Origin: Actinomycetota bacterium
GTDB taxonomy: Bacteria > Actinomycetota > Humimicrobiia > Humimicrobiales > Humimicrobiaceae
Assembly (NCBI GenBank): GCA_051744345.1
Contig: JBNJCW010000002.1
Location: forward strand, 1,176 to 65,175
Direction of reading: 5' to 3'
DNA length: 64,000 nt
A program made the position numbers and the translations under genes. The notes below the pieces were generated by a model that had not been told where the DNA came from, did no database searches, and saw only the letters and a list, made by a program, of their open reading frames with translations. This document shows positions 14,612 to 37,271 of the stretch, piece by piece; the stretch's first letter is position 1, and the number at the start of each line of letters is the position of its first letter.

Positions 14612-14650
14612 TGGCTTCCCCAGGTTGTGAAATTTCGGGCTAATTTTTAA
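14612..14650 (+). repeat. Degenerate tRNA-Asn-3'-end-like repeat copy
   Basis: tggcttccccaggttgtgaaatttcgggctaattttt. Confidence 0.5.
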
Positions 14651-14712
14651 ATAGTTTAATCAGTTTAAAAAAATACTTTACGTAAAACCAAATTTCAAAT
14701 AGTCTAATAACT

Positions 14713-15447
14713 ATGGCAATAGATATAACAGAATTAGAAGGAATTTTAAATTCAAGATTTCAAGATATTGAAGAAAGCTTTGTATTAGGATATGCAAACA
14801 TGAAGAACCTTCTTAGCGGTGACCTCAAAAAATATGAATATTGTATAGTGCTGGGTAAAAAGCTTGATGATAAAGTAATAGATACAATAGAAAATGGCCC
14901 AACACCCCGGTATTATGAACTTTATAATAGAGTAAATATAGAGTTGTATCAAATCGGCTTAGAGCTATCAGGTTATCTTGATTCAAGAAAAATATCTAAC
15001 AAACTTATTAAACCTACTGGTATTAGTAAGGATGTTAAGAATTATAACCCAGAAACACTTACCTATTATTTTTCCCATAAAATGGCTGCAACCAGGGCAG
15101 GCCTTGGCTGGATCGGAAAAACTGATTTGATGGTCACAGAGAAATTCGGGCCAAGAGTTAGGTTTGTTTCAGTTCTTCTTGAAGAATGTATTCAAAAAAA
15201 TGGAATTCCTATTGAAAAGTTAGTTATACCTGTAACAGAAAGCAGATGCGGGAACTGTAATATCTGTATTGAACTGTGCCCGGCTGGAGCTGGGAGTGGC
15301 AAAGAATGGGATATAAATAAAGATAGAGATGCTTTTTTCGATGCCTTTTCATGCATGGAGAAATGCAAGAAACTTTCACTAAAGAACCTGGGGAAAAATG
15401 AGACTATCTGTGGAATATGTGTAAAAACTTGTCCTGTGGGAAAATAA
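14713..15447 (+). CDS. QueG (epoxyqueuosine reductase)-related 4Fe-4S protein, short form
   Basis: GLGWIGKTDL motif typical of QueG and two CxxCxxC...CP ferredoxin motifs. Lacks the N-terminal cobalamin domain (244 aa). Confidence 0.5.
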   Translation: MAIDITELEGILNSRFQDIEESFVLGYANMKNLLSGDLKKYEYCIVLGKKLDDKVIDTIENGPTPRYYELYNRVNIELYQIGLELSGYLDSRKISNKLIKPTGISKDVKNYNPETLTYYFSHKMAATRAGLGWIGKTDLMVTEKFGPRVRFVSVLLEECIQKNGIPIEKLVIPVTESRCGNCNICIELCPAGAGSGKEWDINKDRDAFFDAFSCMEKCKKLSLKNLGKNETICGICVKTCPVGK

Positions 15448-15449
15448 TC

Positions 15450-15495
15450 TGGCTCCCTTATGTTTGATATCCCGAACCAATTTTTTTAAAAGAAT
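15450..15495 (+). repeat. tRNA-Asn-3'-end-like repeat copy
   Basis: tggctcccttatgtttgatatcccgaaccaatttttttaaaagaat. About 85% identical to the copy at 16814. Confidence 0.6.
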
Positions 15496-15666
15496 TGATT
15501 ACTATCTATGGATTAAGACTACAAATCTAGGTGGATAATATGAAATCATGGAATATTCAATTAGTCTTTTGAGTGTAAATGGCTGTTCATACAATTTATT
15601 CTATTTTGGTAAACTTACTCCATGAAGATTGTGTGATTTCTAAAACCATAAGATAAATGTGAAAAA

Positions 15667-16245
15667 TCAATACCATTCAGTATACCATTGGCTCATTTGA
15701 TTGATTTCTTTGGTCTGTGTCCTGATAATATCTTTGGCCAGCTTTTTCATTTCTTCATGCTCTGTTCTATTTAGAAGCATAGAAGCCATCATTATTGCCG
15801 TTTGATGATGGGGAATCATCTGCTCAATGAATTCCCTGTCAAATAGTTCTGCATTTTCAAGTGATTTAAGGTCAGTCATGTCTCCCATAATTCCCATACC
15901 TTCTATTGCAGATTCTGGAACTTCGGTACCATACCAAGATTTGTACCATGAACGCATATCCTCAATCTCTCGTGATTGATTATCTCTTATGTTCTCTGAT
16001 AACTGTTTTAGTTCTTCATGCTCTGCTTTGGTAAGAGCCAGTTCTGCCATATGCACTGCATCCTCGTGATGAGGAATCATCTCCTCAATAAAATGGCGGT
16101 CAATGTCACTCATTATCCCTTGATTGAATCTACAAACTGGCCCTTGGCTAAAACCGCCTGTAATTAAACCTAAAGACATAATACCTATCAAACCTACAGC
16201 AATAAGCATCAAAGATATTACTAATAGTCCTTTATATTTTTTCAT
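15667..16245 (-). CDS. DUF305 family membrane-anchored protein
   Basis: Tandem repeats MIPHHEDAVHMAELAL and MIPHHQTAIMMASMLL. N-terminal TM helix. Confidence 0.6.
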   Translation of the reverse strand: MKKYKGLLVISLMLIAVGLIGIMSLGLITGGFSQGPVCRFNQGIMSDIDRHFIEEMIPHHEDAVHMAELALTKAEHEELKQLSENIRDNQSREIEDMRSWYKSWYGTEVPESAIEGMGIMGDMTDLKSLENAELFDREFIEQMIPHHQTAIMMASMLLNRTEHEEMKKLAKDIIRTQTKEINQMSQWYTEWY

Positions 16246-16269
16246 TTTTTTATAGTACCTTCCAAATTA

Positions 16270-16518
16270 TTAGCTCAGCAGATCTTTTTTGATACTTTCA
16301 TACTGTTCTTTTGATATTTCTCCTCTAGCGTACCTTTCTTTTATAACTTCTAAAGCTTTGTTTTTTGTCTTGGGCTCAGTTCCAGGATAAGTTGTTCTTT
16401 TTATTAACCAGACTATTAAAAGCACTATCCCGATTATTATCAGTATAAAAAAAATAAAACCCAGGATAATGCCGATCCAACCCAGACCGCCCATCATAGT
16501 AGGCCAACCCCACATCAT
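16270..16518 (-). CDS. SHOCT-domain small membrane protein
   Basis: Two TM helices and C-terminal RYARGEISKEQYESIKKDL (SHOCT motif). Confidence 0.5.
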   Translation of the reverse strand: MMWGWPTMMGGLGWIGIILGFIFFILIIIGIVLLIVWLIKRTTYPGTEPKTKNKALEVIKERYARGEISKEQYESIKKDLLS

Positions 16519-16813
16519 AATAAATCACTCCTTCTTTAAAACTTTTTTTAAAGTCTAATTAAGTATAATCTTTGAGCACCATAATAATAACCTTAGTTTG
16601 ACTAGTTTTATCCTAATAATTAGACCAGTTTAGAGATAAATACGCTTCAGTTTTTTAAGAATCGTCTAATTTAATAATTTTGAAATTAGCATTTATATTC
16701 TGGCCGTTTGTTGATAAGGTAATAATAATTAGACTTTTCCTAGTTATTCCATCCCTTTATTATTTACATTAATTGATTGAATATTTTTCATTTATGTGAG
16801 GTAAATATCTGAA

Positions 16814-16858
16814 AGAGGGCCCTAATGTTTGAAATTTCGAACCAATTTTTTAAAAGAG
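16814..16858 (+). repeat. tRNA-Asn-3'-end-like repeat copy
   Basis: gagggccctaatgtttgaaatttcgaaccaattttttaaaagagg. Confidence 0.6.
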
Positions 16859-35412: not shown

Positions 35413-35454
35413 CTGGCTCCCCCTAGTGGACATATTTCGAACTTTTTATTTTGA
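35413..35454 (+). repeat. tRNA-Asn-3'-end-like repeat copy
   Basis: ctggctccccctagtggacatatttcgaactttttattttga. Preceded by aaatttgc, which is identical to the tRNA flank. Confidence 0.75.
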
Positions 35455-35537
35455 TAATATGTTTAATATTGATAAAATCAATAATATTAAAAATACTATA
35501 AACTATTTGATTATGCAATAAATACTTATCTTAATAA

Positions 35538-36304
35538 TTGTGGATTTTTGATTTAGAAAATAAAACTTATTTTTTATTTTTAGACGAGTCTGGTCATCAT
35601 GGCCTAAAAAAATAAATCGAGAATACCCAATATTTCTGCTTGCATGTTGTATTTTTAAAGAAACTTATTTTAAAACTATATTTCTAAAAAGAGCAAAAGA
35701 ATTGAAAATCAAGCACTTTGGGACTGATAAAATCATTTTGCATTCAAGAGATATTAGGAAATGGCAAAAGGAATTTAAGTGTCTTGGAGATATAAATAAG
35801 AGAATAGATTTTTACAAAGATTTAGATAATTTAATACAAACATCAGAGTTCACAATTATTGCTTCAGCAATAGAAAAAAATAAGCTTATCCAACAATATG
35901 GGCCCAGAGCAGATAACCCATACAATATATCACTTTCTTTTATCTTAGAAAGAAGCATATTTTATACAGATAATATTAATTGTAATTCTATTGAAATAAT
36001 AGCAGAATCACGTGGTAAAAGAGAAGATGACCAACTATACTCTCAATATCAATTAATTCTGCATAATGGGACCCATTATGTAACGAGTAATAGATTTAGA
36101 AATAAAATGAAATCTTTTAAATTTGTGGATAAAATTGATAATAATATTGGTATCCAAATCGCTGACCTTGTTGCCTATCCTATAGCAACAAAAATTATTT
36201 ATCCTAAAAGAGTTAATTTAGCATTTGAAGTATTAGAAGATAAAATTTATAGACAATTTCCTGGTGCTGATTATATAGGGTATGGATTAAAAATATTCCC
36301 ATAA
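35538..36304 (+). pseudogene. DUF3800 family protein gene interrupted by a frameshift at an A7 tract
   Basis: N-terminal frame gives LWIFDLENKTYFLFLDESGHHGLKK*, which is the DUF3800 N-motif. The main frame resumes PKKINREYP...MKIKHFG... and includes IQIADLVAYP. An A7-to-A8 change at 35606-35612 restores one ORF. Confidence 0.6.
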
Positions 36305-36417
36305 ACGAAACAAGTCCCCTCAGGGACTTGCCGATCGTGATCCACAATCCAATAATACTATAACAAAATTAGAATTAGTTTGTCAATAATTCAAAAATCC
36401 ATTGACATTTAAAAATC

Positions 36418-36632
36418 CATGGCTCCCCCTAGTGGACATATTCCGAACTTTTTATTTTAATGAAACCAGTACTTTAGAAGATAAATTAGATAGAATTAAC
36501 ACTATTTTTGTATTCCCATAATCAAGAGTTTTATTTTGTAAGCCTCTTTATTGAAGGTTTTAAACCCATTTCCCAAAAATTTACAATATAAAGATAATAT
36601 ATTGACATCATAAATTTATTTTATATAATTAT
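36418..36632 (+). repeat. Long direct repeat R2 (about 215 bp), carrying a sigma70-like promoter for brnT-brnA
   Basis: About 95% identical to 23193..23410. Ends with TTGACA, 17 nt, then TATAAT about 8 nt before the brnT ATG. Confidence 0.85.
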
Positions 36633-36635
36633 TTT

Positions 36636-36902
36636 ATGATAATCTATGATAAAAATAAGGCCATAAAATTAAGATATGAGCGCAATATTGAGATTGAAGA
36701 CATCTTAGATATCATTATTCATAAAAAATATTTAGATATATTAGAACATCCAAAAAGAGCGGGACAGCAAATTTTCATTCTTGAATATAGAGATTATATA
36801 CATGTTGTACCTTTTGTTATTGATAATGACAACAACATTATAATAAAAACAGTATTCCCCAGCAGGAATTTTCATAAGATATATAAGGAGGAATTAAAAT
36901 GA
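36636..36902 (+). CDS. BrnT-like toxin (DUF497/DUF4258-like)
   Basis: 88-aa protein with C-terminal IIIKTVFPSRNFHKIY resembling BrnT RIISARKA...Y. Overlaps the downstream BrnA-like gene. Confidence 0.5.
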   Translation: MIIYDKNKAIKLRYERNIEIEDILDIIIHKKYLDILEHPKRAGQQIFILEYRDYIHVVPFVIDNDNNIIIKTVFPSRNFHKIYKEELK

Positions 36903-37189
36903 AATATGAATTAGATACAGATGAAAAGATTATTGAAAGAGAAGCAACAGAATATAAAAAAGTTTCTGAAGAGAAAAAGAAAAATATCGAGTCAGTTTTA
37001 GAAAGAAGTTCAAAAAAAAGAGTTGTGACTCTAAGACTTAATAATAATGATCTTGAGCAATTAAAATCCATTGCAAATATCGAAGGTATCCCCTATCAGA
37101 CATTAATATCAAGCATACTACATAAGTATATCAATGACAGATTTGTTGATAAAAAAGAAGTATTTAAGATTTCAGAATTATTGAAATGA
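36899..37189 (+). CDS. BrnA-like antitoxin
   Basis: RVVTLRLNNNDLEQLKSIANIEGIPYQTLISSILHKYI matches the BrnA C-terminal RHH-like motif (VPYQSLIK). Confidence 0.55.
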   Translation: MKYELDTDEKIIEREATEYKKVSEEKKKNIESVLERSSKKRVVTLRLNNNDLEQLKSIANIEGIPYQTLISSILHKYINDRFVDKKEVFKISELLK

Positions 37190-37196
37190 AATTTGC

Positions 37197-37271
37197 TGGC
37201 TCCCCGAGTAGGATTCGAACCTACAACCCTTCGGTTAACAGCCGAATGCTCTACCGTTGAGCTATCGGGGA
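37197..37271 (-). tRNA. tRNA-Asn (anticodon GTT)
   Basis: Reverse complement TCCCCGATAGCTCAACGGTAGAGCATTCGGCTGTTAACCGAAGGGTTGTAGGTTCGAATCCTACTCGGGGAGCCA folds as a cloverleaf. Acceptor stem 7 bp, anticodon loop CTGTTAA, T-loop TTCGAAT, CCA encoded. Confidence 0.85.

Follow-up and report, generated by a model that had tools for sequence, protein, structure and literature searches.

What assembled the 23-kb stack of small gene modules that adjoins the asparagine tRNA gene (tRNA-Asn) on contig JBNJCW010000002.1 of an Actinomycetota bacterium (assembly GCA_051744345.1)? The stack spans 14.6-37.2 kb of the 64-kb stretch analysed here (the window), and a preliminary description had noted in it same-orientation repeats resembling the tRNA-Asn 3' end, left either by repeated site-specific integration or by a cassette-shuffling system. 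We found that this stretch is very probably an island built at the tRNA-Asn 3' end by large serine recombinases (LSRs) whose gene crosses the attachment (att) site. The process is accretion and shuffling of modules bounded by LSR att sites, most of them without a recombinase, and is a variant of the known building of tRNA-anchored islands.

The repeats proved real by pattern statistics and by profile. The exact pattern TGGCTCCCC-N8-16-TTCGAAC had five plus-strand matches (four repeats and the tRNA), against 0.01 expected from shuffled sequence. A profile was built from the copies listed in the preliminary description and run over the whole 64 kb; it recovered 11 copies between 14.6 and 36.5 kb, every one on the plus strand (Table 1), and its only other match in the window was a marginal one, to the tRNA 3' end (37189-37222). 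The array was thus upheld and its size of 13 or more copies was not: we counted 11 plus the tRNA, since the copy proposed at 22554 consisted of the 9-mer alone, was missed by the profile and is ascribed to chance. The cores were perfect in the five copies nearest to the tRNA and decayed in the distal ones. Two subfamilies were distinguished, A containing ..GTRRTGAAATTTCGAACCAATTT.. and B containing ..CTAGTGGACATATTTCGAACTTTTTATTTT... The 8 bp aaatttgc ahead of repeat 35414 (35413 as first reported) were identical to those ahead of the tRNA, as had been noticed before.

Each repeat consisted of a 9-nt core, TGGCTCCCC, which is the reverse complement of the tRNA acceptor/CCA end, and a conserved right arm that holds TTCGAAC and the final codons of an LSR gene. 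Read on the plus strand, the tRNA-Asn 3' end is TGGCTCCCC-GAGTAGGA-TTCGAACC. TTCGAAC started 13 nt past the core in all repeats versus 8 nt in the tRNA, an offset of 5 bp. Rutherford et al. (2013, PMC3783163) showed that, in the sites of serine integrases, the zinc-ribbon-domain (ZD) motif of attP stands 5 bp farther from the centre than that of attB. Since the offset fits this published shift, the tRNA was assigned as a B'-type half-site and the repeats as P'-type half-sites. Repeated integration at tRNA-Asn was therefore supported in that the repeats are derivatives of LSR att sites; the accompanying view of them as decayed duplicates of the tRNA end gave way to attP-type half-sites. The information profile rose abruptly at the T of TGGCTCCCC, stayed strong to +29 and was weak to about +67. 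The identity between tRNA and repeats comprised TGGCTCCCC in the window and shrank to TGGCTCC against the local tRNA-Asn in three other loci (L036, L059, and L107; loci in other genomes carry L numbers and protein matches P numbers). We infer the crossover, down to its exact dinucleotide: the shared core probably lies within TGGCTCC(CC), and setting the motif at the published positions would put the crossover within CTCCCC.

The 29-nt core region was translated in differing frames by the two subfamilies, with an A tail of about 24 codons in frame 3 (AP...EISNQIL.EL..LK.L.) and a B tail of about 33 codons in frame 1. The tails kept a short frame of constant length and were conserved at the protein level across phyla. 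That the frame of these 29 nt changes from A to B marks the core as a DNA site, and the protein-level conservation of the downstream frame marks the tail as a gene 3' end. A purely coding account of the core was rejected because of the frame difference, coding behaviour being confined to the tails. A tRNA half or tRNA-like fold was also rejected, as ARAGORN and Rfam detected nothing in the repeats; no tRNA T-arm is possible because five extra nucleotides separate the T-loop-like motif from the acceptor-like end.

The recombinase itself was traced through the remnant that contains repeat 30112. The preliminary description had placed a serine recombinase trace at 29766-30188, and this was confirmed by the three methods given in Table 1. 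The remnant ran in frame through the core of the repeat and terminated 24 codons later. Left and right arms at this junction showed 13/30 dyad matches (TGATTCTTCAAAA against TGAAACTTCGAAC), and a similar left arm, TTTGAA..TCAAAYT, recurred in GC-rich soil contigs. A search of a word-indexed protein database with the remnant gave nothing; matches came with exhaustive phmmer, 233 in all, and the full-length ones (about 500 aa) aligned at their extreme C-terminus. PF00239 Resolvase, PF07508 Recombinase, and PF13408 Zn_ribbon_recom were all present in P0005, P0032, P0060, P0065, and P0143, and two of these three LSR domains in P0023, P0041, and P0054 at E<=0.001. The best match, P0001, ended in ...SNLAPRVGLEPTTLRLTAECSTIELSG, which is the translated reverse complement of tRNA-Asn, and the A-type tail ended P0032, P0021, and P0019. 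Many C-termini among the homologues listed were translated tRNA 3' ends (LAGERGFEP.., MVAHRGLEP.., LVGPAGLEPAT..), which argues that this LSR clade targets tRNA 3' ends with open reading frames (ORFs) that cross the att core.

At the DNA level, the remnant matched the 3' ends of LSR genes in L121-L124 with 70-73% identity as far as the core. L121, the 241-kb contig that encodes P0001, had the recO-glyQS-ppdK-dnaG-rpoD-tRNA-Asn order of the window, and a homologous LSR remnant there read straight into tRNA-Asn; judged by its sequence, this junction is the integrated (attR) form. An intact 5.4-kb element occupied L122 6099-11560 and comprised core and P' arm, methyltransferase/Mrr, a rolling-circle Rep, a helix-turn-helix gene, and an LSR of 507 aa ending at the core. 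It was inserted beside an ETF-alpha gene, at a 26-nt fragment resembling the tRNA-Asn 3' end with attB spacing rather than at a full tRNA. The LSR-core-fragment junction was common to three assemblies (L122, L123, and L124), with ETF-alpha annotated on L122 only. The 3.3-kb contigs L123 and L124, which carry the LSR, had no terminal overlap in the circularity test.

We further compared the arrangement of modules among relatives. The window order is [Phd/YafQ][DUF3800][BrnTA]tRNA; these three modules nearest to the tRNA are self-contained, and in Phd/YafQ and BrnTA the cargo stop codon lies 8 nt from the next core. The Phd/YafQ cassette has the right end ...ATTAAAATTTGC, the core TGGCTCCCC and the P' arm CAACAGATGAAATTTCGAAC. 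In L061, the BrnA right end (...gaaatgaaatttgc) was joined via the core to the P' arm of a Phd/YafQ cassette 95% identical to that of the window over 670 nt, followed by UPF0175/PIN-like cargo (window counterpart 23814-24354). Similarly, L012 held Phd/YafQ (96%) and then UPF0175/PIN-like cargo (90%). In both loci the Phd/YafQ homology (95-96% over 665-670 nt) was bounded by cores, the right neighbours differed from those in the window, and the UPF0175/PIN-like cargo was 90-91% identical to that at 23814-24678 in the window. A BrnA-like end was followed by a B-type repeat in L101. The homology breakpoints of Phd/YafQ and BrnTA fell exactly at TGGCTCCCC, and with their other order in L061, L012, and L101 they behaved as discrete movable cassettes. 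The syntenic relatives L039 and L054 carried AbiE, HEPN/MNT, and ABC transporter genes after tRNA-Asn with the same repeats. Order and cargo thus differed among relatives, whereas strict conservation was what the preliminary description had named as the sign of an ancient fixed sequence and as a refutation of its own reading, and the permuted modules supported its cassette-shuffling reading as the same process as its integration reading. Exact look-ups of the window's RpoD and BrnA found none on record, so no near-identical strain took part in the comparison. 'Empty' units were also seen, in which an A-type core with a 76-nt arm ran straight into a B-type core and no cargo was enclosed (Table 1).

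From these comparisons the following course is proposed. The tRNA would supply the attB-type half-site, in which TTCGAAC is 8 nt away from the core, and mobile DNA the attP-type half-site, with TTCGAAC 13 nt out and then the last 12-33 LSR codons. Recombination of the core and P' of a circular unit with the core and B' of the tRNA would yield ...core-P'-cargo-core-tRNA, so that the core and P' arm would end up on the tRNA-distal side and the tRNA itself would stay intact. Repeated events would stack modules, the newest presumably adjacent to the tRNA, each with core and P' arm at its left and an unconserved right end abutting the next core. Most of the present modules have lost their LSR or never carried one; they are short, self-contained units with their own promoters, and their cargo includes type II toxin-antitoxin pairs, DUF3800, a transporter, and a nuclease, among other genes. 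With an LSR acting in trans, any P' site could recombine with the tRNA B' site, and blocks of modules would be excised or inserted; the joining of BrnA end, core, and Phd/YafQ P' arm in L061 is the circle junction predicted for block excision from the window arrangement. Comparison of sequences across genomes established how the sites are built, which recombinase family is involved, that a relative holds the form integrated at tRNA-Asn, and that modules are permuted with breakpoints at the core. Recombinase-less modules may be moved in trans today, and the right half-site alone may be enough.

Several observations weigh against such a system. No intact LSR was found in the window, so current activity is unproven, and circular cassette forms were found neither by the terminal-overlap test nor by metagenome scans, of which the one for the Phd/YafQ right end gave 0 matches and the one for the junction of LSR arm and P' gave 9 GC-rich soil contigs, none circular. 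At recombinase-less junctions, the 40 nt left of the core carried no information above background. Canonical serine integrases use two half-sites per site and perform no attL/attR-like recombination without a directionality factor. Because the left half-site is unconserved and the canonical rules are stricter, mobilisation in trans needs a relaxed site requirement; the unconserved left flanks imply that the LSR relies mainly on the right half-site, or that modules merely accompany complete elements (accretion). The arm ahead of the UPF0175/PIN-like cargo differed between the window and L012/L061, with homology only from 160 nt past the core, which indicates that ordinary deletion and decay also shape the array. 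About 20 nt after the core differed strongly between the otherwise 95%-identical Phd/YafQ cassettes. Finally, at one Terriglobia locus (L052) a 422-aa tyrosine integrase ORF entered the core from its left side; it may be that elements with tyrosine recombinases share this site, or the reading frame may have been prolonged by chance in the GC-rich DNA. As an observation on the divergent 20 nt, those of L061 (counterpart in the window 34753-34781) resembled the other site in that genome, TAATGTT(T)GAWATTTYGAAC, and within-genome homogenisation of the half-site may have occurred.

These points could be turned into a purely fossil history, in which the array is the debris of successive complete LSR elements gutted by deletion and the recombinase-less modules neither were mobile units in the past nor are so at present. 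The different arms of the UPF0175/PIN-like cargo, the unconserved left half-sites and the failure to find circles are all compatible with it, as are the decayed distal cores and the LSR and IS1595 pseudogenes inside the array. We nevertheless consider it unlikely, because the Phd/YafQ unit of 0.66 kb and the right end of BrnTA recurred in other genomes with breakpoints at the 9-nt core and with changed neighbours and order. With stops 8 nt from the core in several independent modules, random deletions would hardly have excised a 1.5-kb LSR repeatedly with such precision, and the 'empty' 76-nt units, an A-type arm then a B-type core (L017 and L108), also speak against that history. Accretion and shuffling of att-bounded modules also has to be set against an integron, that is, attC-like repeats as in clusters of attC sites lacking integron integrases (CALIN), with a tyrosine integron integrase elsewhere in the genome. 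The cargo-then-repeat layout, the single orientation, the toxin-antitoxin and defence-type cargo, and the one Terriglobia locus with a tyrosine recombinase ORF abutting the motif speak for it, and the likeness to an integron cassette array drawn earlier held for layout and behaviour. It did not extend to identity, for which IntI, attC hairpins, and promoterless cassettes were wanting. The repeats lacked the inverted R''/L''-L'/R' architecture, and neither strand folded stably (z -1.44 to +1.18 versus shuffles); their conservation was one-sided and in primary sequence, the site lay within LSR gene 3' ends, the cassettes had their own promoters, and the anchor was a tRNA beside rpoD. No IntI or tyrosine recombinase was seen among 30 island ORFs by Pfam or in the flanks, whose translations were read by eye without a family search. 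An integron in the strict sense is therefore barely credible. Hardly better is a structured RNA, a tRNA-like gene, or a dispersed repeat of the miniature inverted-repeat transposable element (MITE) or repetitive extragenic palindromic (REP) type unrelated to recombination, which we regard as highly improbable. It would account for the look of a tRNA acceptor/T-arm 3' end and for the spread of the motif over 116 stretches from many phyla, some genomes having it on several of their contigs; however, no repeat belonged to an Rfam family at the gathering threshold or folded better than shuffles, inverted copies were absent with one strand used per locus, and the module breakpoints fell at the core.

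Accretion and shuffling at tRNA-Asn could extend to a serine-recombinase counterpart of the integron, with one half-site per partner (P' and B'), reversible, and with 0.7-1 kb cassettes reshuffled in trans, which we put forward only as a tentative and rather doubtful proposal. Each insertion would then regenerate the tRNA target and leave a reusable P' site. The 29-nt site is present in arrays in many bacterial phyla, among them Acidobacteriota, Actinomycetota, and lineages of the candidate phyla radiation (CPR), and as single copies in Bacteroidota. If movement in trans by a single half-site were true, the directionality rules of phage serine integrases would need extending, an origin would be given for the large pool of toxin-antitoxin and defence cassettes in poorly studied phyla, and compact natural pairs of landing pad and cassette would become available for genome engineering. 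If the modules are not moved in trans, the locus is still a clear case of an LSR building a tRNA-anchored island by accretion. The attP/attB pair of an uncharacterised LSR clade acting at tRNA 3' ends could be read from sequence alone, with the 5-bp half-site offset visible, and LSRs of this kind can assemble very small cargo modules into integron-like stacks.

Among known systems, the locus had the marks of a tRNA-anchored island: an intact tRNA, same-orientation att repeats, an integrase remnant by an att site, and modules differing among relatives. The closest likeness was to the Dehalococcoides ssrA islands, where an LSR (DsiB) inserts elements into the 3' end of a gene for a small stable RNA, tandem islands downstream have direct repeats of that 3' end as their boundaries, and cis-mobilization has been proposed for some islands that lack an integration module (McMurdie et al. 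2011, PMC3146451). There the target is the tmRNA gene, the repeat is a simple 20-bp target copy and the islands are many kb long, whereas here the target is tRNA-Asn, a 9-nt core is joined to an arm of attP type that shows the 5-bp offset, modules go down to 0.66-1 kb, and a single LSR with its ORF across the site was seen with no DsiA partner. In cis-mobilizable elements (CIMEs) and the accretion-mobilisation model, as far as they are represented by citation in PMC3146451, recombinase-less att-bounded modules stand in tandem with an integrase element and are moved with or by it; they are described for integrative and conjugative elements with tyrosine recombinases and have att complete on both sides, whereas one half-site is conserved here. 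Tycheposons of Prochlorococcus tRNA islands are alike in serial integration at one tRNA that pushes older elements inward, in scattered partial tRNA repeats and fragmented integrases, in adaptive and defensive cargo, and in a minority that use LSRs (Hackl et al., 10.1101/2020.12.28.424599). They differ in tyrosine recombinases (910/937; same source), true partial tRNA repeats, replication modules, and larger elements.

A conserved gene whose 3' end receives LSR-driven insertions is a feature shared with the staphylococcal cassette chromosome (SCC/SCCmec) and the Enterococcus cassette chromosome (CcrAB/CcrC LSRs, rlmH). Composite tandem arrays of SCC include recombinase-less pseudo-SCC elements bounded by integration-site repeats. 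Target gene, recombinase clade, and element size differ, and SCC sites are short repeats within rlmH, with Ccr genes inside the element instead of spanning the att site. Integrons are alike in behaviour, with a one-directional array of small modules at one primary site, many toxin-antitoxin cassettes, and shuffling between genomes; they differ in using a tyrosine recombinase, folded attC hairpins in place of double-stranded sequence sites, and attI beside intI in place of a tRNA anchor, and the cassettes here carry their own promoters. The sites of phage serine integrases (LI/A118, Bxb1, phiC31; PMC3783163) have the attP/attB ZD motif displaced by 5 bp and a short central identity, as here. 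Canonical sites are, however, quasi-symmetric with two specific half-sites, whereas here the left one appears specific only where the LSR gene supplies the arm; the tRNA-end target is a further difference, and tandem arrays are unexpected for strictly unidirectional integrases.

The 29-nt motif TGGCTCCCC nnA nnnnnn A nnn TTCGAAC occurred in 116 reference-genome stretches, among them more than 40 of Bryobacterales/Bryobacteraceae, low-GC Actinomycetota metagenome-assembled genomes (MAGs), Rokubacteria, Saccharibacteria, CPR2, and Mucilaginibacter. The nearby tRNA was mostly tRNA-Asn (6/11 loci having a tRNA), with the orientation of the window in L036, L039, L054, L059, and L107 and the motif on the other side in L094. 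All copies of a multi-copy locus lay on one strand, such as six in L036 and four each in L035 and L103. A same-orientation array by tRNA-Asn was present in Saccharibacteria (L036), and single copies in Mucilaginibacter (L059) and Parcubacteria (L107). Clustering of the 589 ORFs of the 116 loci gave no recurrent family, hence no recombinase recurrently beside orphan copies, and the ORFs upstream of the motif were mutually unrelated (PIN, MazF, AbiEii, HepT, HicB, YidC, HypA, and others). A pattern scan of IMG/VR gave four matches, none informative on an autonomous element.

The motif also occurred in other settings. In Acidobacteriota it was part of a composite element of about 170 nt (L075, L110, L003, and about 35 further Bryobacteraceae/Terriglobia loci), made up of the core with CTGGACACGTTTCGAAC, then a GCTCGAACC box in the middle, a hairpin (CCAGACTGGG..CCCAGTCTGG), and lastly a diverged second copy (GGGCACCCAGTCTGGACACGTCTCGAAC); one genome can hold several copies on different contigs. 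A Bryobacteraceae-type element had no blastn match in plasmid and phage collections. One Terriglobia MAG carried a 2.29-kb segment, 99.96% identical, on two contigs, starting 3 nt before the core (Table 1). The variant TGGCTCCCCAAACGTAACAGCATTCGAAC (L048, L090, L034, L114, and the viral contig L118) was followed in frame by a conserved ORF of about 186 aa with a helix-turn-helix-like C-terminal half (..EIARREGITRARVTQVM..), one copy of which was on an IMG/VR contig. The variant TGGCTCCCCGGATCGGGCAATCTTCGAAC (L018, L025, L060, and L093, from CPR2, Aquicultor, and Actinomycetes) had a conserved left flank as well, about 45 nt with the hairpin GGCTCTACAGAGCC, and retained both arms without an LSR ORF. 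In L098 (Bryobacteraceae), inverted copies of Acido-Lenti-1 RNA (RF01687) were located at 5692-5737 and 5864-5909, a few kb from the motif.

Table 1. Features of the tRNA-Asn island (window coordinates unless a locus is named) and units in other genomes
Feature	Position	Strand	Profile match	Subfamily (member start)	Remarks
Repeat, distal-most	14612..14678	+	14605-14678	A (14612)	1 core mismatch; starts Fer4 gene module (14713-15447); Pfam and profile
Repeat	15450..15514	+	15441-15514	A (15450)	1 core mismatch, 1-nt deletion; starts DUF305/SHOCT module
Repeat	16817..16872	+	16817-16872	A (16814)	core decayed, TTCGAAC and tail retained; E=7.8e-8
Repeat, weak and decayed	17458..17520	+	17458-17520		overlaps 3' end of typA/bipA-like gene; E=1e-5
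Repeat and arm	23195..23393	+	23195-23265	B (23198)	3 core mismatches; 196-nt duplicate (93%) of arm 36419-36614
Repeat	23657..23714	+	23657-23714	B (23651)	core decayed; E=2e-7; heads 6.5-kb segment
LSR C-terminal remnant	29758..30188	+			about 140 aa, one internal stop; translation, phmmer, DNA alignment
Repeat	30112..30176	+	30104-30176	A (30112)	perfect core; sole junction with recombinase-type left arm (P-core-P')
Aldo-keto reductase	30377-31459	-			in module headed by repeat 30112; Pfam
IS1595-family transposase pseudogene, frameshifted	31503-32459	-			in module headed by repeat 30112; Pfam
Repeat	32601..32667	+	32594-32667	A (32601)	perfect core; starts MFS transporter module
MFS transporter	33241-34422				in module headed by repeat 32601; Pfam
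Repeat	34753..34819	+	34750-34819	A (34753)	perfect core; starts Phd/YafQ cassette
Phd/YafQ cassette	34753..35413	+			phd 34884-35141; yafQ/higB-like 35134-35406; Pfam; 0.66 kb
Repeat	35414..35478	+	35406-35478	B (35414)	perfect core; E=4.4e-14; starts DUF3800 cassette
DUF3800 cassette	35414..36419	+			DUF3800 gene 35702-36304; Pfam
Repeat	36420..36487	+	36412-36487	B (36420)	perfect core; E=1.7e-15; starts BrnTA cassette
BrnTA cassette	36420..37196	+			right arm, promoter, BrnT-position ORF, brnA, right end ...gaaatgaaatttgc
BrnT-position ORF	36636-36902	+			no Pfam match; called BrnT from place beside BrnA
brnA	36899-37189	+			Pfam BrnA
tRNA-Asn(GTT)	37197..37271	-			ARAGORN; Rfam tRNA 74 bits; anchor site, attB type (core and B' half-site)
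'Empty' unit	L017 758/834 (oriented)				A-type core, then B-type core
'Empty' unit	L108 4064/4140				A-type core, then B-type core
'Empty' unit	L015 1071/1223				A-type core, then B-type core
Terriglobia tyrosine integrase ORF and 2.29-kb segment	L052 1339-2607 and 2541-4831				
Terriglobia segment	L041 1-2291				

The cargo calls made earlier for Phd/YafQ-HigB, DUF3800, and BrnA were borne out by Pfam, that for BrnT was not. A promoter scan located a consensus TTGACA-16-TATAAT at 36602-36629, ahead of the BrnT-position ORF, and a promoter-like site (10/12 match) at 34830-34858, ahead of phd. The 6.5-kb segment after repeat 23657 contained by Pfam a UPF0175 gene with an adjacent ORF, SEC-C, PRiA4_ORF3, DUF6880 fragments, and REase-ARP; the ORF next to UPF0175 stands in the position of a PIN toxin and had no Pfam match. 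A second BrnT/BrnA pair was located on the minus strand (22617-23121), adjoining the duplicated BrnTA right arm of repeat 23195. A full-length typA/bipA-like GTPase gene (17501-19312, minus strand), called from its translation without a family search, lay between repeats in the low-GC island and may either belong to the cargo or indicate an old age of the distal array. An intact IS1595 transposase was present at L121 7314-8219, in the corresponding island of that relative.

The tRNA-Asn gene lies immediately downstream of dnaG-rpoD, with ppdK, glyQS, recO, and era farther out; these names were taken from translations and from Pfam labels on a syntenic relative. G+C content was 27-36% in most 2-kb bins of the island versus 43-49% rightwards from about 40 kb. 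At the gathering threshold Rfam matched only two features of the window and no repeat. One was the tRNA; the other was a thiamine pyrophosphate (TPP) riboswitch (57571-57673, plus strand, 68 bits), which lies upstream of a thiamine biosynthesis cluster and is unrelated to the array.

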